DNA of 35,307 nt from a virus. The stretch is taken from positions 1 through 35,307 of IMG/VR virus record IMGVR_UViG_3300020181_000009; one strand, written 5' to 3'. Below are positions 1,056 to 35,307 of the stretch, one piece after another; the first letter of the stretch is position 1; the number at the start of each line of letters is the position of its first letter. The position numbers and the translations under genes were made by a program. Under the pieces are notes generated by a model. The model was not told the origin of the DNA and did no database searches. It saw nothing but the letters and a program-made list of their open reading frames with translations.

Positions 1056-1085
1056 TTGCCAACCTATTAGGTCATGTATTAGACT
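1056..1085 (+). promoter_or_regulatory. Promoter box A: TTGCCA-N18-TAGACT with conserved 18-nt box
   Basis: -35 TTGCCA at 1056..1061 and -10 TAGACT at 1080..1085. The 18-nt box TAGGTCATGTATTAGACT (1068..1085) is shared with five other sites. ATG 1092 lies 6 nt after the -10, suggesting a leaderless transcript. Confidence 0.45.
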
Positions 1086-6768: not shown

Positions 6769-8036
6769 GGCACGATCACAGTCTCGGGATCGGCCACGTA
6801 CTCGAGCAGGTCGGCCCACGTCGGGAAGGCGGCCAGCACGGCGGCCCACGATCCGAAGTCGGCGATCAGCCCGGCCCATGTCGCGGCGTAGCCGACCACG
6901 CTCTCGGCGGGCGGGGCGACCTCGGTCATCGGCAGCGAGAAGAGTCGGCGGTCGTCGGCGAGCGTCCGACTGACCCGGCCGAGATTCATGTCGCCGAGCC
7001 CGACGTACCCGCCCGGGATGTCGTACTCGGGCGGCACCTGCACGAGCACGACGTCGCCCGAGGCGATGAGGAACTCGAGCGCGCGTTTCTCGGCCAGCGT
7101 GCGCGTGAGCACCTGCAGCGTCCACCCGGCCGAGCTCGGCACGTCGCCGACGCGCACGGGGAACGACCGCCCGGGTATCTCGAACAGCCCGGCCCGGGAG
7201 CGGCGCGTGACCGCCGTGTAATCCTGCACTGTGACAGGCATGTTGAGGAACGGCCGGGCGATGCTCTTGAGCCACACGCGGTCGATCGTCGGCGTGACCG
7301 TGACCGTCTCGGTGCCGAGCGACACCCCGACGTCCGAGAGGTACGTGACGCGGTACGTGTTGAGCACGCCCGGGGCGAACTCGTAGTCGTCGAGCTGCGC
7401 GGTGCCCGAGGTCGCCGACCGCTCTCGGCCGCCGCGCACGACCGCGTACGGCCGCGCCTCGGCCGACCGCTCGATCGTGACCGAGGCGGTGCCCGCGATG
7501 CCACCGCCGGCCGAGTCGTCGAGCAGCAGCACGTCGTCGAAATAGACCACCGTGCCGCCGGCCGGACTGCCTGTCAGCGACGGGCCGTAGCCGACGAAAG
7601 CGGCGCCGACCGGGGCGACCGCGGCATACGTGCGGTGCGTCCACGCGCCGGCCGGGAGCACGACGGTCTCGGCCGCGGTCGAGAGGTAACCGAACCCGCT
7701 GTCATACCAGTCCATCGAGACTGCGGCGCCCGCGTACCCCGCGGCCGAATAGAGCCACATGTCGAGCGTGTATTCCTCGCCGGGCGTGACCGCGGTCGAC
7801 ACCGACGGCCGGGAGTACGCCTGCGTCGGCGAGCCCGTCACGGTCAGCTTGCCCGAGTAGCTGCCCGTGTGCGCCTGCTCGTTCGAGCGGACGACCGTGC
7901 AGTCGAACCCGGTCCAGTCGGCAGCGCTGATCTCGAACGTGCCGTCAGCGCCGCCGACCCCCGTGCCCGTGCCGCCGGCATCGACGGTCAGTCGTACCCG
8001 GGCGAGATCGCTGTCGTACGTCGCCTCGATGCTCAT
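6765..8036 (-). CDS. Distal tail protein (Dit) with N-terminal carbohydrate-binding-like module, 423 aa
   Basis: Immediately downstream of the tape measure gene. The N-terminal ~190 aa resemble a CBM-type jelly roll (FEISAADWTGF...AHTGSYSGKL). The C-terminal half is Dit-like. Confidence 0.6.
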   Translation of the reverse strand: MSIEATYDSDLARVRLTVDAGGTGTGVGGADGTFEISAADWTGFDCTVVRSNEQAHTGSYSGKLTVTGSPTQAYSRPSVSTAVTPGEEYTLDMWLYSAAGYAGAAVSMDWYDSGFGYLSTAAETVVLPAGAWTHRTYAAVAPVGAAFVGYGPSLTGSPAGGTVVYFDDVLLLDDSAGGGIAGTASVTIERSAEARPYAVVRGGRERSATSGTAQLDDYEFAPGVLNTYRVTYLSDVGVSLGTETVTVTPTIDRVWLKSIARPFLNMPVTVQDYTAVTRRSRAGLFEIPGRSFPVRVGDVPSSAGWTLQVLTRTLAEKRALEFLIASGDVVLVQVPPEYDIPGGYVGLGDMNLGRVSRTLADDRRLFSLPMTEVAPPAESVVGYAATWAGLIADFGSWAAVLAAFPTWADLLEYVADPETVIVP

Positions 8037-10030
8037 GCGTACGCCCCTACTACTCGAGCGCCGGCCCGCCTGCGCGTCTGCCGATCGCGGCTTTCGATCT
8101 GCACGTCGACAATATCGGTCAGCTCACGGTCGCCGATGTAGACGTGCACGACCGGTGACCCGCTCTCGCCGAGAATGGCGCTCGTGTCGTTCGCGTTGCT
8201 GACGTAGGCGCGCCGGCCGACGCTGAGCAGCTCGGGTCCGTTCTCGCCCGTGAGGTACGTGCGGCCGGGCTGCGCCCAACCGCCCGAGGCGAGACGCGGC
8301 AGGTTCGGTGTCGAGAGAGTCGTTCCGCCGATCTTGCCGAAAGGCGTATTGATCGAGGGCAGCGAGAATGACAGGCCGTTCCATCGGTCGATGATGTAAT
8401 TGATGGCGTTCCGAAAACTGTTCTTGATGCCGTCCCACAGCCCGCCCGCAGCCGAGCTGATCCGGCCCTTGAGTCCGGAGATGTAGCTGACAACCTTGTT
8501 GAACCGGTCGACGATCCCGTCACGCACGCGCTGCGCGGCGGCGACAATCGTCATGATCACGGCGACGATCAGCTTGATGTAATTGACGTACGACGTGTAG
8601 ACCCACTTGGCGGCGGCGACGATTTTGTCCCACGCGGCCTTGAAGAAGTCCTGCACTTTCTTGATGGCGACCTGCATCGACAGGAATGCGACGAGGAAGA
8701 TCGGCACGAGGGTCGTGCGCCACCAATCCGCGACCGCGCCGGCCGCTGCCTTGATCGCACCCCAGATCACGGCCCACAGTTTCTGAAAGAATTCCGTCTT
8801 AGTGGCGAGCAGCACGATTCCTGCGACGATCAGCGTGATTCCGGTGATGAGCAGCCCGACCGGAGTGAGCCGCATCGCCAGACCGAACGCCTTGGTCGCG
8901 ACCGTGGCCACGTTGGTCGCGATCGCGGTGGCGGCCATGACCGCGTTGTATCCGGCCATGGCCACGGTGTACGCGAGCCACGCGCCGACCAACGCGGTGA
9001 TGAGCTCGGGCGGCAGGGCGGCGATGATGCCCGCCAACGCGGTCGCGATCGCGATCGAAATCGGGGCGATCGGCCCGAGCGCCTGCGCGATGACCACCGC
9101 GGCGGCACCGAGCTGCGAGAGCGCCTCGCCCGCCCCCGGGCCGTTCGAGCTGATCGAGTCGAGCAGCCGCTGCAGCCCGCCGTTGTCGCCGAACGCGGCG
9201 AGCCGCTCGGTCGCGTCCGCCAGGAACTCGAGAAAGCCCTGACCGTCCTCGACGGTCCCGGCGAACAGATCGCCGAGGAACGAACCGACGTTGCTGCCGA
9301 TCCGGCCGAGGCTGTCGAGCGCCGGCCCCGCGTTGGTCTTGACGAACGCGACGAACCGGTCGAGCCCGCCCCCGGTCGCGAACCGCTCGAGCGCGCCAAG
9401 TGCTCTGCTGGCCGCCGCCGCACCGATGTCATAGAGCGGCTGCAGCTTACTCAGGTTGTTGCCGATCAGCGCGTACCCGCGCTCGAGGATCCCGAACGTC
9501 GCGGGCTGATTGTCCTCGACGAAATCGTCCCACGCGCTCTTCATGCCGATGTACTGACGCGTCGCCTCGCGCACGGGCGCCGGCAGCAGCGACAGCCGCG
9601 CCTCGAGCTCGAGCGCCGCCTTACTCTGCGCCTTGAGATACTTGCCCGCCTCGAGTCCGTGCTTCTCGGCGAGCTCGGCCTGCCGCCCGTTGAGCCTGAT
9701 CTTCTCGGTCAGATCCTCGACCTTGGTCGCCGCCTCGCTGACCTCTTTCTGCGAGCTGGCCGCCACCGCGCCGAACACGCCAAGTGCCGCACCGCCCGCG
9801 CCGGCCGCCGCCACGACACCGACCAGCGCGGTGCCGAGAGCGGCCACGGCCGGGAGCGCACCGGGGGCGATCAGCGCCTTGGTCACCCGAGAGAACTTGC
9901 CCGCCGCCGCGCCGGCCCGGTCGGCTTGCTTCTCCCACCGCGCGAGCGCACCGCCCGCGGTCGCGGTGTCGGCGACGAACTTACGTACCTCGGACGTGAA
10001 CTTGATCTTGACTGTGCGTTCGCCGGCCAC
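8033..10030 (-). CDS. Tape measure protein, 665 aa
   Basis: Largest gene in the tail module. A/G-rich helical sequence with several hydrophobic segments. GTG 10030 overlaps the upstream TAG. Confidence 0.85.
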   Translation of the reverse strand: MAGERTVKIKFTSEVRKFVADTATAGGALARWEKQADRAGAAAGKFSRVTKALIAPGALPAVAALGTALVGVVAAAGAGGAALGVFGAVAASSQKEVSEAATKVEDLTEKIRLNGRQAELAEKHGLEAGKYLKAQSKAALELEARLSLLPAPVREATRQYIGMKSAWDDFVEDNQPATFGILERGYALIGNNLSKLQPLYDIGAAAASRALGALERFATGGGLDRFVAFVKTNAGPALDSLGRIGSNVGSFLGDLFAGTVEDGQGFLEFLADATERLAAFGDNGGLQRLLDSISSNGPGAGEALSQLGAAAVVIAQALGPIAPISIAIATALAGIIAALPPELITALVGAWLAYTVAMAGYNAVMAATAIATNVATVATKAFGLAMRLTPVGLLITGITLIVAGIVLLATKTEFFQKLWAVIWGAIKAAAGAVADWWRTTLVPIFLVAFLSMQVAIKKVQDFFKAAWDKIVAAAKWVYTSYVNYIKLIVAVIMTIVAAAQRVRDGIVDRFNKVVSYISGLKGRISSAAGGLWDGIKNSFRNAINYIIDRWNGLSFSLPSINTPFGKIGGTTLSTPNLPRLASGGWAQPGRTYLTGENGPELLSVGRRAYVSNANDTSAILGESGSPVVHVYIGDRELTDIVDVQIESRDRQTRRRAGARVVGAYA

Positions 10031-21899: not shown

Positions 21900-21928
21900 A
21901 TCTTAACAGCGCTAAGCCATCTCGGCAA
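21900..21928 (-). promoter_or_regulatory. Candidate promoter TTGCCG-N17-TAAGAT
   Basis: Minus-strand -35 at 21928..21923 and -10 at 21905..21900, upstream of the HTH gene. Confidence 0.3.
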
Positions 21929-22695: not shown

Positions 22696-23616
22696 TCAGC
22701 CCCCGAGCCGCTGATACGCGAACCGCGCCTGATCCGGCACGACCCCGTTACCGGCGAGGCGCACGACATCCTGCCGCTGCAGGCCTCGGCCCGAGATGTG
22801 ACCCGCGGGCAGCATCATCAGCCACTCGGCGAACCGCCCCGAGAGGCGACCGTGCTCGTCGAGCGGCAGCGGGGCCGGCGCGCCCATGGTCGCCTCGTGG
22901 CGCCTGATCGCGCCCTCGTAGATGCCCCACGTGCCGGGAGCGAGCGTGCCCACGGCATCGTTGAGCGTCGGCCCGGTGCCCGTCCGGGCCGCCCGGTCGG
23001 GCTCTACGCCGCGCTTCTCGTCGCCCGCCCGCGGGGTCGGCAGCAGTCGCCCGAGCCGCAACGGGTAGCCGCACGCCATCCGGCGCACGTGCACCGCCTC
23101 GGGAGCGGGCCGGTTGACCACGCGGTCGGCCAGCAGGAACCACCGGTGCCTGTGATGGGCCGCGCCGACCTCGCAGGCGCCGTAGACGCCCCACCGAACC
23201 GCGAACCCGTCCTCGCGCAGGTTGCTCAGGATCTCGGCGTGCAGCCTGCCGCCCTCGATCGTCACGAGGTTGCCGACGTTCTCGAGGAACACCCGGAACG
23301 GCTCGGCGGCCCGGATCGCCGTACGCGCGTACGGCCACAGCCACCGCTTGTCGGCCTTACCGCGCTTGCGGCCCTGCACGCTGACGGGCTGACACGGCAC
23401 GCCTGCGGTCAGGATGTCGACCCGACTGAGCAGCTCGAACAGCCCCGGATCGGTCAGGTCGCCGAGATTCGGAGCGAGCGAGTTCAGCTCGAGCACGCGA
23501 GCGGCATCGGGCTCGTTCTCGACGTGCCACAACGGCGTATGCGCCACCCCCGCGAGGGTCAGCGCCATGCCGAGCCCGTCATACCCGCTGCACAGGTGCC
23601 CGCTCGTAATCGTCAC
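22696..23616 (-). CDS. DNA (cytosine-5) methyltransferase, 306 aa
   Basis: Motif I LCSGYDGLG, motif IV GVPCQPVS, motif VI FLENV, motif VIII RHRWF, motif X LAGNGVVP. Confidence 0.85.
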   Translation of the reverse strand: MTITSGHLCSGYDGLGMALTLAGVAHTPLWHVENEPDAARVLELNSLAPNLGDLTDPGLFELLSRVDILTAGVPCQPVSVQGRKRGKADKRWLWPYARTAIRAAEPFRVFLENVGNLVTIEGGRLHAEILSNLREDGFAVRWGVYGACEVGAAHHRHRWFLLADRVVNRPAPEAVHVRRMACGYPLRLGRLLPTPRAGDEKRGVEPDRAARTGTGPTLNDAVGTLAPGTWGIYEGAIRRHEATMGAPAPLPLDEHGRLSGRFAEWLMMLPAGHISGRGLQRQDVVRLAGNGVVPDQARFAYQRLGG

Positions 23617-23975
23617 GCTCGCACCATCGCTCGGGTGCGCCGCGCCTCGACCTCGGACGCGATCTCTTCCGCGGCGAGCGCCGGGTACGGCACGCCCCCG
23701 TCCGACTCGATCAGCCCGCGCTCGACGAGCGCCGCGATCGTCTCGGCCACGAGCACGCAGTTCCGGGCGTTGAGCTCACGCAGGTCGGCCATCGCTACCG
23801 GCCACTCAGCCATCGCGAGGATGACGAGCGACTCGGTCTCGGTCATACGCTCGATCTCGGTCAGTGCCTTCTCGGCGTCGGCCGCGGTCGGCAACGGGCC
23901 GACGACGCGGATCGTGCCGCGGTTGATCTCGTGTCCGTACTGCGTTTGCTCGATCCGGAGCTCGTTCGTCGTCAT
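23613..23975 (-). CDS. Hypothetical protein, possible winged-helix, 120 aa (leaderless start)
   Basis: ATG 23975 lies 6 nt after the -10 of box B. Confidence 0.6.
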   Translation of the reverse strand: MTTNELRIEQTQYGHEINRGTIRVVGPLPTAADAEKALTEIERMTETESLVILAMAEWPVAMADLRELNARNCVLVAETIAALVERGLIESDGGVPYPALAAEEIASEVEARRTRAMVRA

Positions 23976-23981
23976 GTCCCT

Positions 23982-24011
23982 ACCCTAACACGTGACCTAT
24001 TAGGTTGTCCA
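23982..24011 (-). promoter_or_regulatory. Promoter box B: TGGACA-N18-TAGGGT
   Basis: Box TAGGTCACGTGTTAGGGT on the minus strand (23999..23982). -35 at 24011..24006, inside the helicase 3' end. The 11-bp palindrome ACCTATTAGGT lies at 23995..24005. Confidence 0.45.
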
Positions 24012-26880: not shown

Positions 26881-26910
26881 AAGCTAATAGGTCGGCTACT
26901 AGCTTGTCAA
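26881..26910 (-). promoter_or_regulatory. Promoter box D: TTGACA-N18-TAGCTT
   Basis: Minus-strand -35 at 26910..26905 and -10 at 26886..26881. Box TAGCCGACCTATTAGCTT. A 34-nt leader with a Shine-Dalgarno sequence runs to ATG 26846. Confidence 0.5.
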
Positions 26911-26948: not shown

Positions 26949-27034
26949 TGATACGGATGATACGGATGATTCCCGTTCCTCGCGTAACGCGCAGGCATGC
27001 GCGTTCTTGGGAACCATCCGTATCATGTGTATCA
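26949..27034. repeat. Imperfect palindrome with TGATACGGA repeats downstream of the primase gene
   Basis: Direct copies at 26949..26957 and 26958..26966; inverted copy at 27017..27025; TGATAC half-copies at 26871 and 27029..27034. Inner hairpin AACGCGCA-GGCA-TGCGCGTT at 26986..27005. Confidence 0.7.
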
Positions 27035-29617
27035 ACCCTGCTCAGCGGTAGTGCCGGAGACAAAACGGACGCCCCACCATGCCCGCTGCATCTTACCGAC
27101 AGCAGCCTCAGCGGTACTCTGTGAAGCGACCGCCCCGAACGCCGGCATGAGCAGCGAACGCGGCCGGAACGACCTCTGCTCGCCTTCCCGTACCCGCCGC
27201 AGCGCGAACGTGACCCGATGCGACACGGTTTCGTCGTGTTGCTCGAACTTGGTCTTAAATGTCTGGATAGACATCGGTTTGTGCCCGCTCGCCTCGGCCC
27301 ACGCGTTGAACTCGGCGTGCATGTCGGTGCCCGTGATGTAGCTCGAGGGGTCCGCGGTCAGGCACTCGCGCCAGAACCGGATGATCATGTCGCTGTCCTC
27401 GCGCCACTGCAGCGTGTCGGCCGCGACGGTCGCCGGCAGCGGCGGCATCCGGCGCTCGGCCGCATACCAGCGCATGGCGCCGGCCACGAGCCACGCGAGA
27501 ACCGCCTCACGCTGCCGCTCGCCCTCTTTCATGCGGTCGCGCAGGGTCGGGTCACCCGGACGCTCGTGCTCGGCCCCTGTGGCGTCCTGCGGGCTGACGA
27601 ACTTGAACGGGAACTGCACGAGCACGAGTCGCCGCCACGTCCCGTGGTCGGTCTCGGTGACCTTGGGCAGGTAGTTGGTCGAGACGAACAACGAGTGCGT
27701 GCTCTGCCACGTGATCGAGTCCTGCCTGATCTTGCGGGCCGTCATCTCGGGGGTGCCGATGACGTCCTTGAGCCGCTTCACGTTCAGGTGCCCGTCGTCG
27801 GGCAGCTCCTCGGCCAGCGCGAACCGCGCCCCGAGCAGCACGGTCATCTCGGTCGAGTGCGCCTTGGGGTCGGCGAGCAGAACCTTGTCGCTGACGAACA
27901 CGCCGTAGCTGCCGAGGCAGGACTTAACCGCATTAAGCACGGTCGACTTGCCGTTCTCACCGCCACCGCGCAGCAGCAGCAGCTTGTCGTCGCTGGTCAT
28001 GTGGCCTGTAATGGCCTGCCCGAACCGCACCGCGAGCCACTCGGCCACGTCCGGCGCCACCGCGGTCAGCGCCGCTCGCCAGTCCGGGTGGTCGGCGCCG
28101 GCCACGTAGCCGACGTCCGTGATCTTCGTAAACCGCATGGCCGGGTCGTGCGCCCGCTGCTGCCCGGTGCGCAGGTCGACGATCCCGCTCTGCGTGTTGA
28201 GCAGATCGGGGTGCGCGTCGAACGCCTCGGCCTCGACGTGCAGCACGCCCCGGCACAACCGGGTGATTGCGCCGATCCGGTACGCCGAGTTGAGCCCGTT
28301 GATCGCCTTACTGACCTCCCGGTCGACGGCGAACACGTTCTCGAGCTGCTTGGCCGCGTACCGCGCGAGCCACAGCCGCACGACCTCGATCACGCTCTCT
28401 TCGCTGGTCTCGCGCCAGCGCTGGCCCGTCCACGCGAGCCACCCGAGCCCGGGTGCCCAGCAGTGCGAGGCGTAGAGCAGCTCGTCACAGAGCAGCTGCG
28501 CGATCGCCGAGTCGGTCAGCTCGGCCTCGGCGATGCGCTCATCGACTTTTGGGGGCGCGACCATCACCTGACCGTCCGGGGCCGTAGGCAGGTTCGGGGG
28601 CGGGGGCGCGAGCAGGCTCGGCACGCTGCAGGCGCAGAGCGTCCGCGGTACCACGTTGTCGGCCGCCGCCAGACTCACCGCCCCGGTCAACAGCCGCAGC
28701 CACTCGCCCTCGCTGTCGCGGCCGGGCGCCGCGGTCACGTCCACGAACACGGCACCGAGCTCGAGCAGCGCGCCCGGCGCGCCGGCATGCCCCTCGCCGC
28801 CGTACGCCGCGATCGTCCGCGCAGCGTCCCGGGCCGTCTCGTGCCGCCCGGCCCGGCCGACCCGCAGCTCGCCGACCGCCCGCTGCAGCGCGTCCGCGAC
28901 CCGCGGGCAGGGCGCCTCGTCGCGCAGCTTCTCCCACCACGCAGCCATGTCGCCGTGTGCGAGGTCGCTCTTTTCAGTGCGCTCGTACGACAGCGCGAGT
29001 CCGCGTACCCACGCCTCGGGCAGTATCGGAAACGTTCCGGGATCGGGTGGGTACGGGCACGCATCGCCAAGCTCGGCGCCGTGCTGATAACGCCACGCGT
29101 ACTCGGCACCGTCCGCCTCGGGATTGGTGCTCGGCCACACGACCGCGTACCGGTGCCCGTGCTGAATCAGCTCGATGCCCTTGGCTGCTTCACCGGGCCA
29201 GTTGATCGGGCGCCCGTCGAGCTCGGTCGGTACGCGGAACCATCGGATCCCGCTCGGCGCCGGCCGGGCCGAGCTGACCCACGTCGGCGGCAGCGGCCCG
29301 TACTTGGCCTCGAGCTCGGCGAGCGCAGCGGCGCCGGCCTTGACCTGTCCGCCCTTCTCGTACGCGTCCACGTCGAGCCCGAGCACGCCCTCGGGGGCGC
29401 GCAGGCCGATGTTCCGCTCGCCGTGCGTCTCGATGTACGCCTCGACGTCGGCGGCCGACGGGTCCGGGTTGCCGTGCCCGGTGAAGCCTCGCGGCGGCGG
29501 CCACTTCTCGCCGGCCTTGGCGCCGACGGGCAAAACTCCCAGCCACCCGGCCGCTCGATATAGCCGAGCGGCTCGTGCATATGGGCCGGTAACGGTACTA
29601 TCGCCGCTAGTCAGCAC
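27032..29617 (-). CDS. Bifunctional primase-polymerase / P4-D5-type primase-helicase, about 861 aa (track start 29647)
   Basis: N-terminal prim-pol pattern with VLGLDVDAY. C-terminal Walker A GGGENGKST. GTG 29617 follows an AGGGGAG Shine-Dalgarno sequence. Confidence 0.85.
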   Translation of the reverse strand: MLTSGDSTVTGPYARAARLYRAAGWLGVLPVGAKAGEKWPPPRGFTGHGNPDPSAADVEAYIETHGERNIGLRAPEGVLGLDVDAYEKGGQVKAGAAALAELEAKYGPLPPTWVSSARPAPSGIRWFRVPTELDGRPINWPGEAAKGIELIQHGHRYAVVWPSTNPEADGAEYAWRYQHGAELGDACPYPPDPGTFPILPEAWVRGLALSYERTEKSDLAHGDMAAWWEKLRDEAPCPRVADALQRAVGELRVGRAGRHETARDAARTIAAYGGEGHAGAPGALLELGAVFVDVTAAPGRDSEGEWLRLLTGAVSLAAADNVVPRTLCACSVPSLLAPPPPNLPTAPDGQVMVAPPKVDERIAEAELTDSAIAQLLCDELLYASHCWAPGLGWLAWTGQRWRETSEESVIEVVRLWLARYAAKQLENVFAVDREVSKAINGLNSAYRIGAITRLCRGVLHVEAEAFDAHPDLLNTQSGIVDLRTGQQRAHDPAMRFTKITDVGYVAGADHPDWRAALTAVAPDVAEWLAVRFGQAITGHMTSDDKLLLLRGGGENGKSTVLNAVKSCLGSYGVFVSDKVLLADPKAHSTEMTVLLGARFALAEELPDDGHLNVKRLKDVIGTPEMTARKIRQDSITWQSTHSLFVSTNYLPKVTETDHGTWRRLVLVQFPFKFVSPQDATGAEHERPGDPTLRDRMKEGERQREAVLAWLVAGAMRWYAAERRMPPLPATVAADTLQWREDSDMIIRFWRECLTADPSSYITGTDMHAEFNAWAEASGHKPMSIQTFKTKFEQHDETVSHRVTFALRRVREGEQRSFRPRSLLMPAFGAVASQSTAEAAVGKMQRAWWGVRFVSGTTAEQG

Positions 29618-29649
29618 GGATGGATCTCCCCTATCTCGCTGTCGCACCT

Positions 29650-29717: not shown

Positions 29718-29993
29718 CTACGCCGTGCCTGCTCGCTTGATCAGCTCGGCGCGCCCGAGCTTGATGCGCCTGTCGTACTCGGCATTCAGCACGGCCGATG
29801 TCCGGTAACTCTCGATGGCATCCTCAAGCAGCGCGCGGGCGACCGCGCCCTCACTGCGCGCCCCGTCGGCGATCTTGCTGCCGAGCAGGAAGGCTCGCGT
29901 CTCCTCGGTCATCAGTACGTTGACGTGCTCCGTCAGCAGCGCGGGCTCGGCCGCGGGGGCGACTCGCGCCTCGGTCTCGTTTGTCATGGTCAT
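29718..29993 (-). CDS. Ribbon-helix-helix (CopG/Arc-like) regulator, 91 aa (89 aa if leaderless ATG 29987)
   Basis: Pattern HVNVLMTEETRAFLLGS...EGAVARALLEDAIESY fits strand-helix-helix. The gene abuts the operator palindrome. Confidence 0.6.
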   Translation of the reverse strand: MTMTNETEARVAPAAEPALLTEHVNVLMTEETRAFLLGSKIADGARSEGAVARALLEDAIESYRTSAVLNAEYDRRIKLGRAELIKRAGTA

Positions 29994-30042
29994 AACCTAA
30001 CAGACGACCTAGGTTGCGCGCTATTAGGTCGTCTGTTAGGTT
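29994..30042. promoter_or_regulatory. Divergent operator/promoter: perfect 18-bp inverted repeat with 13-nt spacer
   Basis: AACCTAACAGACGACCTA (29994..30011) is the exact reverse complement of TAGGTCGTCTGTTAGGTT (30025..30042). Each arm ends in a TAGGTT -10 facing outward. Confidence 0.6.
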
Positions 30043-30049
30043 CATGGGC

Positions 30050-30220
30050 ATGAAGTTGTTCCGGACCCGGCGCCACCGCGGCGCACACCGTGCCCGCCGG
30101 CCGGGAGACTGCCACTGCACGGTCCGTCCCCCGGTCGACCCGTGGGCCGGTAACCCGATCCTGTTCCCCCGGTACGCCCCGGCACTGTGGGCGGCCGCCG
30201 ACCGAAAGGCGATCCTCTGA
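30050..30220 (+). CDS. Small basic protein, 56 aa (leaderless; 58 aa if ATG 30044)
   Basis: MKLFRTRRHRGAHRARRPGDCHC.... Third codon positions are very G/C-rich. ATG lies 7 nt after the -10 at 30037..30042. Confidence 0.55.
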   Translation: MKLFRTRRHRGAHRARRPGDCHCTVRPPVDPWAGNPILFPRYAPALWAAADRKAIL

Positions 30221-30726
30221 TGGCCATGCCCGCATACGAACCGCGCCGTAAGCGCAACACGATGAGCGGCGTGCTGCTCGGCGCGCTGGTGCTCTTCCTG
30301 ATCTGCATCGGCGGCACCGTGTTCGCCGCACTCTCGGATGACAGCACGCCACCGCCGGCCGTGCCGACGTTCGACCCGACGAACCACTCGACGCAGCCGC
30401 CGCGGACGCTCGCTCCGACGGTCGCACCGACGACCCCCGCGGCCGAGCAGCCCGCACCGAGCACGGCGGCCGCCAAGGCGCCCGCCCCGACGATCGCAGG
30501 CGATGACGTCGTGCAGGTCGGGCAGGACGTGCCCGCGGGCACTTACCGCGCCGTGGAAGCGGTCGAGAACGACGGCTTCCTGATGTGCTATTGGCTCAAG
30601 AGCAGCGACGCCGAGGGCACGCAGATCATCAGCAACGGCCTGCCGCAGGGCGGGCGGCCGCAGGTGACGCTCAAGAAAGGTCAATGGTTCACCTCTCAGG
30701 GTTGCCCGACGTGGCGCAAACAGTGA
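30220..30726 (+). CDS. Membrane-anchored protein with Pro/Thr/Ala linker and small Cys-bonded C-terminal domain, 168 aa
   Basis: ATG 30220 overlaps the upstream stop (TGATG). TM segment VLLGALVLFLICIGGTVFAAL. C-terminal pattern PAGTYRA...CYW...GCPTW. Confidence 0.65.
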   Translation: MAMPAYEPRRKRNTMSGVLLGALVLFLICIGGTVFAALSDDSTPPPAVPTFDPTNHSTQPPRTLAPTVAPTTPAAEQPAPSTAAAKAPAPTIAGDDVVQVGQDVPAGTYRAVEAVENDGFLMCYWLKSSDAEGTQIISNGLPQGGRPQVTLKKGQWFTSQGCPTWRKQ

Positions 30727-32022: not shown

Positions 32023-33368
32023 CCGATCTGCAGGCGCCGGCCATCGTCGGCCGCATCGGGTCGATGCGCGTGCGCAACGGCCGTTACTTCGATGGTGACG
32101 AGTCCTACCAGCGCACGAGCAACGCGCTCAAGAACATCGAGACGGACACCTATCAGCTCGACGAGTGGAAGGCGAACACGCTCGCGATCGGGCTGTCGTC
32201 GCGGTCCGACCTCGTGCTCGGGGTGGCCGCCGCCGCGCAGTACGACCCGGCGACGGGCAAGCTGACCAGCGAGGCGAAAAGCACGTTGCGCGGACTGCGC
32301 GAGCAGGCGATGCAGGCGGGCAAGAGTAAGGCGGGCAGCAACGCCGGCACCGCCGTGCATACCGCGACCGAGCGGCTCGACATGGGCGAGACCGTCGAGC
32401 AGGTCGGCCTGCCGTACCCGTACGACGTCGACCTCAAAGCGTACGAGACGCTCAAACGGGCGATGCGGCTCAGCTTCCGGCCCGAGCACATCGAACGCAC
32501 CGTGCGGCTCAAGCAGTTCGGCATCGCCGGCACGTTCGACCGCCTCGGCGAGAGCGGGCTGCTCGTCGAGCTCGGCATCCTGGCGCCCGGCGAGCTGCTC
32601 GTCGTGGACGTGAAGACGGAGACCGACCCGCTGCTGAACCTGATTCACATCGCACCGCAGCTCGCCTCGTACGCGCACGGCGACGACATGTTCGTACCCG
32701 AGCCGCAGCCCGCCACCGACGCGGACCCGAGCGGCCCGTTCCGCGGGCGGTACGAGCCGCTGCCGAACGTGAGTAAGGTCGTCGGGCTCGTCGTGCACGT
32801 GCGCGCCGGCCGGGCCGTGCCGTACCTGATCGACCTCACCTCGGGTTGGGCCGGGACGGTCGCGGCGTACGAGCAGCGCGAGCGGATCAAGGCCAGCAAG
32901 ATCAAGCTCGGCGATGAGGGCTGTTGGGCCGTCGCGCTGCCGATCGACCTGCCGCCCGTGACCGAGTTTGTTGCCGACTCGATCGCCCGCGGGCCGCTCG
33001 GTTTCTCGGCGCCCGCCGGCATGACGCACGAGCAGTACGTCGCGCAGCCCGCCCTGCCCGCCGCGCCCGTCATTGAGCAGGCCGTGCGCCGGCCGGATGG
33101 CATGGTCGATTGGGTGCCCGCGGGCATACCGCCCGGCGAGGCGCCGCTCGAGGCGATGCTATGGGAAGCGATCATGTCCGCCGACTCGCTCGAAGAGCTC
33201 GCGCGGTTGTACGAGAACGCGACCGCGACCGGGATCGAATGGCTCGGGCCGATCGCCGAGGCGGGCATCGCCCGCGCAAAGATCGTGCAGTGCGTGCAGC
33301 GCGACCTGCACGTTCCGGCCAGCGGTGGCGCGTGCGCGTGTGGATGGCGCGCGGAGCTTGTGCCCTAA
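32019..33368 (+). CDS. PD-(D/E)XK (RecB/Cas4/YqaJ-like) exonuclease, 449 aa
   Basis: Motifs GTAVHTATE, GTFDRLG...LLVVDVKTE and QLASYA match the D / (D/E)xK / QxxxY nuclease signature. Confidence 0.65.
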   Translation: MTDLQAPAIVGRIGSMRVRNGRYFDGDESYQRTSNALKNIETDTYQLDEWKANTLAIGLSSRSDLVLGVAAAAQYDPATGKLTSEAKSTLRGLREQAMQAGKSKAGSNAGTAVHTATERLDMGETVEQVGLPYPYDVDLKAYETLKRAMRLSFRPEHIERTVRLKQFGIAGTFDRLGESGLLVELGILAPGELLVVDVKTETDPLLNLIHIAPQLASYAHGDDMFVPEPQPATDADPSGPFRGRYEPLPNVSKVVGLVVHVRAGRAVPYLIDLTSGWAGTVAAYEQRERIKASKIKLGDEGCWAVALPIDLPPVTEFVADSIARGPLGFSAPAGMTHEQYVAQPALPAAPVIEQAVRRPDGMVDWVPAGIPPGEAPLEAMLWEAIMSADSLEELARLYENATATGIEWLGPIAEAGIARAKIVQCVQRDLHVPASGGACACGWRAELVP

Positions 33369-33386
33369 TAGATGACGTGTTAGGTT
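33358..33386 (+). promoter_or_regulatory. Promoter box E: TTGTGC-N17-TAGGTT (no ATG follows)
   Basis: Box TAGATGACGTGTTAGGTT at 33369..33386 is near-identical to box B. It would start a ~197-nt untranslated RNA upstream of ATG 33590. Confidence 0.4.
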
Positions 33387-34709: not shown

Positions 34710-35307
34710 CCACGCTCAACGTGCTGGTCACCGGGCGGCCCGCTCCCGAGGGGTCGCACGACGTCGGCTCGAACGGGTACGTCATGCACTCGAGCAAGTA
34801 CCTCGCCGCGTGGCGGCACGCGGTCAACCGCGGCACGCGCGAAGCGTACGTCGCGGCCGGACTGTCGGGCGCCGACATGCCGCTCGTGCCGTACCCGCGG
34901 CCGGTATGGGTCACCGTGTTGCATCTGCTGCTCGACGAGCAGTGCCGCGCCGAGGGAACCGACGACCCGACCGGAAAGCCGGACGGAGACAAGCTGCTGC
35001 GCGCCACGATCGACGGACTCGGCGAGGCGCGGGCGTTCGGCGATGACTCGCAGGTCATCGGGCACCGATCGTTCAAGGCGCGGGGCCGCCGGCCCGGCGC
35101 AGTCATTCAGATCACGGACGAACGGCCCTGGTGGGCCGAGATGAACAGGGAGAGATCGACTGTGGAGACGTTCAACCCGAACGGCGAGTACCGCCTCGTG
35201 CTCGAGAAGGTCGGCCACGACAGCGAGGGCGACCGGACGTGGAACACGATGTTCGAGGTCACCGACACGGCCGACGCGATCGCGAGTACGTGGCTGCCCT
35301 CGCTCGA
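34706..35307 (+). CDS. rusA: RusA-like Holliday junction resolvase, 5' part (runs off the window and continues at 1..398; about 290 aa in total)
   Basis: Hand translation VTTLNVLVTGRPAPEGSHDV...PDGDKLLRATIDGLGEARAFGDDSQVI matches the RusA pattern (G.P..KG / D.D..K...D.L). No stop before the window end. Confidence 0.75.
   Translation, partial: MTTLNVLVTGRPAPEGSHDVGSNGYVMHSSKYLAAWRHAVNRGTREAYVAAGLSGADMPLVPYPRPVWVTVLHLLLDEQCRAEGTDDPTGKPDGDKLLRATIDGLGEARAFGDDSQVIGHRSFKARGRRPGAVIQITDERPWWAEMNRERSTVETFNPNGEYRLVLEKVGHDSEGDRTWNTMFEVTDTADAIASTWLPSL
35181..35307. repeat. Terminal overlap copy 2 (identical to 1..127)
   Basis: Same 127 bases as the window start. Confidence 0.9.

Follow-up and report, generated by a model that had tools for sequence, protein, structure and literature searches.

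A perfect inverted repeat separates two divergently oriented genes in a window of 35,307 nucleotides (IMG/VR virus record IMGVR_UViG_3300020181_000009, positions 1 to 35,307). The question raised by this locus is whether the repeat, which lies between the start codons at 29987 and 30050, is one symmetrical operator read as a whole by the product of the adjacent small gene, or whether its symmetry has another origin. We find that the repeat arm belongs to a promoter cassette which heads the early transcription units of the phage and is present four more times in the window. The palindrome is two such cassettes of promoter plus candidate operator placed back to back, a familiar kind of phage control region and not a unique switch. 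To the overall reading, in which this cassette-based divergent region is combined with a small ribbon-helix-helix (RHH)-like protein as regulator of the early promoters, we assign a probability of roughly 0.58.

Predicted divergent promoters around the inverted repeat

The inverted-repeat search returned a left arm at 29994-30011 (AACCTAACAGACGACCTA) and a right arm at 30025-30042 (TAGGTCGTCTGTTAGGTT), 18 nt each and 100% complementary. The elements of the region are:

29985..29987, minus strand, conserved ATG of the small gene, 6 nt past the -10 element, predicted leaderless start
29994..30011, left repeat arm, minus-strand reading TAGGTCGTCTGTTAGGTT
29994..30002, minus strand, extended -10 element (box B) of the small-gene promoter, TGTTAGGTT; TGnTAnnnT is kept in 19/19 loci, 6-7 nt from the ATG
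30012..30024, 13-nt spacer, GGTTGCGCGCTAT (other strand ATAGCGCGCAAC), holding the overlapping -35 regions
30014..30019, plus strand, -35 hexamer TTGCGC of the plus promoter, at 17-nt spacing to TAGGTT and overlapping the weak minus -35 region at 30017-30023
30025..30042, right repeat arm, plus-strand reading TAGGTCGTCTGTTAGGTT
30034..30042, plus strand, extended -10 element (box B) of the plus promoter, TGTTAGGTT
30050..30052, plus strand, conserved ATG of the plus operon (GTG in some relatives), 7 nt past the -10 element, predicted leaderless start

Either arm has TAGGTT as its outward end. On the minus side the start codon (CAT, 29985-29987) is found 6 nt past the left arm, with a second in-frame ATG at 29991-29993 touching the arm; on the plus side the ATG at 30050 is 7 nt past the right arm and an extra in-frame ATG occurs at 30044. 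The repeat, its spacer, the outward hexamers and the distances to the ATGs are thus exactly as a first-pass annotation of this DNA, made from the sequence alone, had given them. Since conservation among relatives does not extend to the ATGs at 29993 and 30044, 29987 and 30050 are taken as the true starts. Of the two starts open to the small gene, 29987 is conserved and agrees with the database gene call of 89 amino acids (P0001), and 29993 has to be given up.

The region was compared with a set of 18 related metagenomic phage loci. Those fetched included 13 distinct loci of the family to which the window belongs (hereafter the window family), three 20-kb loci, and six distant loci with homologues at 46-49% identity to a subfamily query. 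Scans with the protein alignment yielded one viral and five metagenome loci, the subfamily alignment A3 serving where the wide alignment A2 was too diverse.

The first-pass annotation had taken the outward TAGGTT hexamers for divergent -10 elements followed by leaderless-type starts, with a TTG-type -35 on the plus side only, and the comparison bears out each of these points. The extended -10 (TGnTAnnnT) runs through all 19 loci. On the small-gene side a start codon follows it after 6-7 nt (19/19 loci); on the opposite side an ATG or GTG follows after 7 nt in 13/13 window-family and 4/6 distant loci. Of the 13 window-family loci, 12 have 63 bp from start to start; in the distant family this distance is 75 bp in 4/6 loci and 83 bp in one, the sixth being without a measurement. 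The -10 hexamers are free at their N positions across the window family (TAGGTT, TAGCTT, TACCTT, TAACTT, TATGTT), and the pattern TGNTANNNT-N6-ATG is present twice in the window where 0.06 occurrences are expected. In the orientation of the small gene the window-family consensus reads CAT/CAC - 7 nt - AAnnTAnCAG - nnn(n) - ACCTA ATAGCGCGCAA(C/G)C TAGG - nnnn - CTGnTAnnnT - 6 nt - ATG. In actinobacteria a TANNNT -10 element and frequent leaderless mRNAs are the norm (PMC6448022). Both -10 elements of the repeat fit this actinobacterial SigA consensus.

The TTG-type -35 is restricted to the plus side, and this feature is conserved among the relatives. The small-gene promoter is without a good -35, having TAGCGC (at 18-nt spacing) or AGCGCG at the matching position, and here the extended -10 would need to make up for the poor -35. 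The interpretation of the two outward extended -10 elements as divergent, predicted leaderless promoters of the housekeeping-sigma (SigA/sigma-70) type is well supported by these conserved motifs and spacings. Transcription from either promoter would start at or beside its start codon, at 29987 on the minus and 30050 on the plus strand. With the -35 regions overlapping in the 13-nt spacer and the starts 63 bp apart, two polymerases would probably compete, and the plus promoter with its TTGCGC would be intrinsically favoured. The small protein and Prim-Pol/helicase would be encoded on the minus transcript, accessory and recombination genes on the plus transcript.

The two-box cassette and its candidate operator

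The promoters of the repeat share their design with others in the window. In order, the cassette comprises a -35 (TTGnnn), a 9-bp dyad CCTNNNAGG (box A), 4-5 nt, and TGnTAGGnT (box B, the extended -10). Its copies are:

1064..1085, plus strand, TTGCCA-a-CCTATTAGG-tcatg-TATTAGACT; leaderless ATG at 1092
23982..24003, minus strand, TGGACA-a-CCTAATAGG-tcacg-TGTTAGGGT; leaderless ATG at 23975
26881..26902, minus strand, TTGACA-ag-CTAGTAGC-cgacc-TATTAGCTT; with a leader, GAGGGAG standing 5 nt upstream of an ATG ~44 nt past the -10
30020..30042, plus strand, the plus promoter of the repeat; leaderless ATG at 30050
33365..33386, plus strand, TTGTGC-c-CTAATAGA-tgacg-TGTTAGGTT; no ATG or GTG within 5-8 nt

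A position weight matrix (PWM) gave matches in the window at 1085, 23982, 26881, 30042 and 33386, and 3-5 matches apiece in the relatives L160-L162, where cassettes stand at equivalent places. The extended -10 pattern by itself (TGnTAnnnT) occurs five times vs 12.6 times in shuffles, with upstream sequence common to 4/5 of the occurrences. CTAWTAG is found five times against 0.25 expected, each time inside a cassette, and CTAWTAG-N6-TNNTANNNT five times against 0.00 expected. Over 10 genomes we tabulated 45 cassette matches, most of them with a TTGnnn -35 16-18 nt upstream. All of the window's cassettes sit in its early/replication part and none (0) in the structural gene block. The first-pass annotation had described the repeat as a mirror-symmetric switch from which the two longest transcription units start back to back. 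The repeat is not a unique switch, the arm cassette recurring at the four other places listed above and in relatives, and neither unit is a single long one, promoters of the same type lying inside both.

The copy at 26881-26905 is itself nearly palindromic (AAGCTAATAG-gtcgg-CTACTAGCTT), and the two-box cassette can be read there on both strands; the minus reading has a perfect TTGACA -35, and the weaker plus reading would run antisense to the primase gene. In front of the structural block stands another conserved promoter, without box A, at 21900-21908 on the minus strand (TTGCCG-N14-TGTTAAGAT followed by tcgcaggtcag). It precedes the HNH-terminase-structural genes, is also present in L160 (18425-18433, plus strand) and is probably the late promoter.

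The distant family (L163-L168) keeps the design with another box, i.e. a -35, CCTGCTAGG, 4-5 nt and TGCTAGGnT. Each 14-20-kb locus has 5-10 extended -10 sites with CCTGCTAGG, many followed by an ATG 6-7 nt on. The divergent region of this family has four boxes (B, A, centre, A, B), and its 75 bp from start to start exceed the distance in the window family by 12 bp, one box period. In L167 (at 9942, minus strand, and in other cassettes) box A is found as both CCTAATAGG and CCTGCTAGG within one genome; because of this use of both, the binder of box A should tolerate either centre.

The box A elements of the divergent region are:

30020..30028, box A dyad GCTATTAGG (consensus CCTNNNAGG), at ~-30 to -22 in the spacer of the plus promoter and centred at ~-37 relative to the minus promoter; candidate operator
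30008..30016, minus strand, degenerate box A of the minus promoter, CAACCTAGG; the window family keeps its TAGG half only

At the position of the degenerate box the distant relatives have a full CCTGCTAGG. Box A has the form CCT-NNN-AGG, and its centres among the 45 matches are GCT (16), ATT (10), AAT (7), AGC (5) and a few others. GCT/AGC and ATT/AAT are reverse-complement pairs, which means that either orientation of box A is found, always at one and the same offset between -35 and -10. This points to a two-fold-symmetric protein as its reader and not to a directional sigma factor, and on these sequence grounds we suggest that box A is bound by such a protein. The dyad overlaps core promoter elements and is conserved beyond what the promoter needs. 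Box B together with the bases preceding it forms a second copy (cCTGCTAGG / tCTGTTAGG) that begins 11-12 bp, or about one helical turn, from box A; this spacing would let two dimers bind cooperatively on one face of the DNA and cover the extended -10.

Whether the centre of box A covaries with the small protein's putative DNA-reading strand was considered, and covariation could not be demonstrated: L009 alters both and L010 the box only. An iron box of the IdeR/DtxR type (TTAGGT repeats) was set aside, the distant family having CCTGCTAGG and the repeat geometry being different. The phage possesses a DNA methyltransferase gene (22696-23616, minus strand), and all of the promoter boxes contain CTAG or TAGG.

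Box A could instead be a part of the promoter that requires no dedicated regulator. The boxes would then be promoter architecture and the palindrome their by-product; box A, as a duplicated -10-like or spacer element, would be contacted by RNA polymerase or by a host factor (RbpA/CarD-type or a global regulator), resulting in very strong early promoters, and the small protein would be, e.g., a replication accessory working with Prim-Pol. Box A does resemble box B (CCTGCTAGG vs cCTGCTAGGnT), and some loci score both as extended -10 elements 12 nt apart. A near-consensus -35 with an extended -10 already makes a strong promoter, and the small protein is without a DNA-binding signature at the sequence level. 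However, the occurrence of both GCT and AGC at one position is unexpected if sigma reads directionally. The spacers of sigma-70-type promoters are normally unconstrained in sequence, the probable late promoter at 21900 does without box A, and the fold prediction discussed below favours a DNA-binding RHH protein. We regard an explanation without a regulator as unlikely.

How much of the repeat itself is conserved bears on the proposal, made in the first-pass annotation, that whole arms are the unit of recognition. In its literal form the arms are half-operators, and a dimer of RHH dimers bound to them hides the two -10 elements together, so that the two main transcription units come under autoregulated on/off control. 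The repeat is indeed perfect, and each arm includes box B and a portion of box A at a distance of about one turn, which fits two cooperating dimers; the neighbouring gene has an RHH-like fold prediction, and in some relatives the -10 boxes co-evolve (TACCTT twice in L013 and L160, TAGGTT twice in L003). Yet an arm-to-arm identity of 18/18 is limited to the window, L002 and L006, and falls to 12-16/18 in the remainder of the window family (15 in L015, by hand count) despite a near-invariant putative reading strand, LTEHVNVL, in the small protein; for this reason the unit of recognition that is conserved is not the whole arm. Conservation within the divergent region of the window family is highest in the 13-nt spacer and lowest in the middle of the arms. 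The best-conserved element (30012-30028) is off-centre within the repeat, and what is conserved beyond the promoters is the off-centre 9-bp dyad at 30020-30028. As shown above, the site is not unique, the cassette being present at four other promoters of the window, and internal promoters split the two supposed units. The perfect 18-bp symmetry is lineage-specific and not general, and we consider half-operator arms an improbable explanation of it. In L158 (~2950-2990) the inner bases of the boxes are altered symmetrically, CCTG...CAGG for CCTA...TAGG, a single possible compensatory event that would favour symmetric recognition.

Within the window the arm 18-mer has two sites, with none added at up to 3 mismatches, where 0.00 are expected (100 shuffles). 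As single-stranded DNA, 29985-30052 folds with -23.5 kcal/mol compared with -5.7 +/- 1.8 for shuffles (z = -9.8), a strong hairpin that might suggest a terminator, an RNA hairpin or a DNA cruciform. We give a function as nucleic-acid structure almost no chance: the genes on either side point away from the repeat, and it has no T-run; it would not be transcribed, as the predicted starts are outside it; its stem is not kept by compensatory changes in the relatives, as their arm identities indicate; and Rfam returned no match above threshold.

A further possibility is that the four-box cluster represents iterons of a replication origin recognized by a Prim-Pol/D5-type helicase, as the alpha primase-helicase of satellite phage P4 recognizes repeated octamers at ori and crr. 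The largest cluster of boxes is directly upstream of the operon of the small gene and Prim-Pol, whose primase-helicase has a Pox_D5 C-terminal region; the 49-bp core is AT-rich for this genome (~49% GC by our own count vs ~70% in the window) and could form the strong hairpin just described. Against this, the boxes are dispersed as pairs, oriented with the downstream gene and placed at an exact start-codon or leader distance, which is the behaviour of promoters and not of iterons, and no other origin features were found. An origin is very unlikely.

The small protein as candidate regulator

The small gene is always the first gene beside the divergent region. Its features and those of the genes that flank it are:

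29718..29987, minus strand, small protein gene (RHH candidate), 89 amino acids; disordered N-terminus, extended at ~20-27, helices at 28-41, 46-63 and 68-88
27032..29647, minus strand, Prim-Pol / D5_N / Pox_D5 primase-helicase, following the small gene without an intervening promoter cassette
30050..30220, plus strand, first open reading frame (ORF) of the plus operon, 56 amino acids, Arg-rich; its stop overlaps the next ATG (TGATG, 30218-30222)

The small protein has 52 homologues, all of them metagenomic and many on 33-37-kb contigs; an exhaustive profile search gave 42 representatives at 50% clustering. Modelled with AlphaFold2 (AF2) on the deeper alignment A2, it reaches a predicted local distance difference test score (pLDDT) of 91.6. 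Residues 1-27 are non-helical in this model, the block 21-30 has a pLDDT of 95, and helices follow at 28-41, 46-63 and 68-88. The model thus shows the strand-helix-helix order expected of RHH proteins, with 68-88 as an extra helix. LTEHVNVL, the putative DNA-reading strand, is nearly invariant in the window family. Foldseek matches of this model in the PDB include NikR (root-mean-square deviation 1.1-2.7 A over 41-49 columns), PrpA (one entry being titled RHH domain), AtaR, Reg576 (TMt 0.74) and MazE-mt1; going by entry titles and the nature of these proteins, we take ~17 of the 21 best PDB matches to be of the RHH type. We judge that the small protein quite probably has the RHH fold, and a role for it as regulator of the cassette promoters is plausible on this model. 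Mnt consists of an RHH domain followed by a C-terminal tetramerisation helix, and the predicted layout of the small protein matches it. An RHH domain with a long C-terminal helix of the Mnt kind would fit a dimer of dimers on two boxes.

Several results weigh against a regulatory RHH protein acting at these boxes. No RHH family in Pfam, NCBIfam or PHROGs was found for the small protein or for 52 plus 40 relatives, and sequence and profile searches of the PDB with the protein gave 0 matches. Comparisons by hhalign with Arc, Mnt, an alignment of 19 Mnt homologues and the annotated RHH protein of Microbacterium phage OscarSo (gp47) were not significant (E = 0.24-0.66). An AF2 model from a shallow alignment (pLDDT 83.6) had a doubtful helical turn at 24-27 and 0 Foldseek matches, and all of the PDB matches of the better model are weak (E = 1.5-10, none at E<=0.001). 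By residue count the protein is slightly acidic overall. On the DNA side, the small-gene promoter of the window family has half of box A only, so that simple autorepression is not obvious; the centre of box A differs between loci with an identical putative reading strand (L010 vs the window); and in principle polymerase or a host factor could be the reader of box A. Of the RHH assignment in the first-pass annotation there remain a better AlphaFold model that is compatible with it and top Foldseek matches that are mostly RHH, whereas every sequence-level test fails and the structural E values exceed 1.

In the mechanism that we favour, a two-fold-symmetric phage protein would bind box A, probably cooperatively with box B, and block polymerase at all of the early promoters. 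The best candidate for this binder would be the adjacent 89-amino-acid protein, with its RHH-like domain and putative C-terminal oligomerisation helix. Bound near -26 of the plus promoter it would shut off the plus operon directly; the same site, near -37 of the small-gene promoter, would let it tune the production of both itself and the primase-helicase. This would amount to a feedback or shut-off circuit for early genes, of the CopG/Arc type.

A bolder version, which we think decidedly unlikely, makes the two-box cassette and the overlapping back-to-back promoters a true bistable switch in a phage without integrase. From its place on the off-centre dyad the small RHH-like protein would silence the intrinsically stronger plus promoter, along with all other early cassettes; the competition between polymerases being relieved, its own promoter, poor in box A, would be activated, by analogy with the logic of Mnt at Pant/Pmnt. 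In addition, box A would be a duplicate of the -10 that acts as a decoy and is recognized by sigma and repressor alike. If true, a group of phages regarded as purely lytic would have a repressed state that sustains itself, such as a carrier state or episomal prophage.

Genome setting and comparison with known systems

The phage is a tailed virus of ~35.2 kb and 70% GC that is known only from metagenomes. Because the last 127 nt (35181-35307) exactly repeat the first 127 (1-127), the window is a circular assembly of ~35,180 bp; a gene for a 290-amino-acid RusA-like resolvase spans the junction (34706 to 398). Below 29987 the minus strand encodes the small protein, Prim-Pol/D5, a helicase, the DNA methyltransferase, an HNH endonuclease and a prohead protease, and further on terminase, portal, capsid, tape measure and tail proteins. 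The plus-strand genes from 30050 on specify the 56-amino-acid ORF, a putative membrane protein and an exonuclease. As the first-pass annotation had noted, there is neither an integrase nor a CI-like repressor among the ~50 ORFs scanned. In every related locus with a listing of flanking genes, Prim-Pol follows the small gene and a divergent operon precedes it.

The first slot of the plus operon (30050-30726) holds the 56-amino-acid ORF, coupled via TGATG to a putative membrane protein of 168 amino acids. It is filled differently in the relatives (~2420-2940 in L003/L011/L158; 2436-2825 in L002), where an Rv1352-like (PF27111) or an Excalibur-domain protein is found instead. This looks like a moron or accessory slot under the strongest early promoter. 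The tape measure gene (8033-10030, minus strand) also matches the endolysin PHROG phrog_971 (E = 3.7e-28), which suggests a tape measure protein with an embedded lytic domain.

Described phages have little in common with this region. Megablast of it against 50,697 phage records gave 0 matches. With a distant blastn the primase gene alone matches phages of Microbacterium, Brevibacterium and Mycobacterium, at best with 65-68% nucleotide identity, and both the small gene and the cassette are absent from Microbacterium phage OscarSo. A tblastn search of the phage records with the small protein and a distant relative likewise gave 0 matches. An exact scan of 596 Gb of genomes for the spacer 15-mer CCTAATAGCGCGCAA found more than 119 stretches, none with promoter context on re-screening, and pointed to no host; the same scan of viral contigs recovered the already-known contig only. 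The box sequences, looked up as strings in the literature, led to nothing relevant.

Among characterized systems the copG-repB operon of pMV158 with its promoter Pcr is the nearest in arrangement. CopG acts at an extended -10 promoter with an operator overlapping the promoter, several dimers binding on one face over several turns, and is co-transcribed with a replication gene (PMC2724298). As in the plasmid, a small RHH(-like) gene is first and a replication gene second in the same orientation, here before Prim-Pol/helicase; the -10 is extended, and the boxes are about one turn apart. Unlike CopG, the small protein shares no detectable sequence homology with it, the promoters here are divergent and predicted to be leaderless, and the candidate operator recurs at other early promoters.

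In the immI region of P22 (Arc, Mnt; Pant, Pmnt), the two promoters diverge and overlap, and both are repressed by Arc, whose operator lies between -35 and -10 of Pant (PMC2724298). Divergent overlapping promoters with small RHH proteins are shared with the present locus, where RHH is a prediction. The differences are that the hhalign comparison with Mnt and Arc is not significant, that the TAGA boxes of Arc are 5 bp apart where we find a CCT-N3-AGG dyad with a second box 11-12 bp away, and that this phage is without an antirepressor or a lysogeny module.

The Cluster O mycobacteriophages have divergent leaderless SigA-like promoters (PL1/PR2) in an AT-rich intergenic region, and 17-bp dyad repeats (PMC4351075). 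Like them, the window phage has divergent, predicted leaderless promoters, a multi-copy dyad repeat proposed to bind a dimeric protein, and no integrase. Most of the Cluster O dyads are found off promoters, whereas here every copy is inside a promoter spacer, and sequences and proteins are unrelated. The conserved inverted repeats of the temperate actinophage phiC31 provide many genome-wide sites for one phage repressor, a layout that the cassettes here would share. In the stoperators of Cluster A, too, one phage DNA-binding protein is served by many short sites genome-wide (PMC9283540, PMC6550527). Unlike box A, stoperators are asymmetric, are bound by a monomeric helix-turn-helix repressor, occur mostly in transcribed regions and block elongation. 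In contrast to the temperate actinophages, this phage has no integrase or recognizable immunity repressor among its scanned ORFs.

Divergent leaderless promoters, operators embedded in promoters and small RHH regulators encoded before replication genes are thus all already known. What is new is the particular cassette, its conservation over a group of uncultivated phages, and a protein family of ~50-90 members, probably of the RHH fold, that is missed by current family libraries. For the reading of sequences there is a caution, that a striking perfect palindrome can be merely two copies of a reused promoter cassette. The relevance is moderate for specialists in phage and actinobacterial gene regulation, and the general surprise low. 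If the circuit is right, it would offer compact portable parts for high-GC Gram-positive hosts, namely strong leaderless promoters, a 9-bp operator and an 89-amino-acid repressor, and it would account for the timing of early genes in a whole group of uncultivated 35-43-kb phages.

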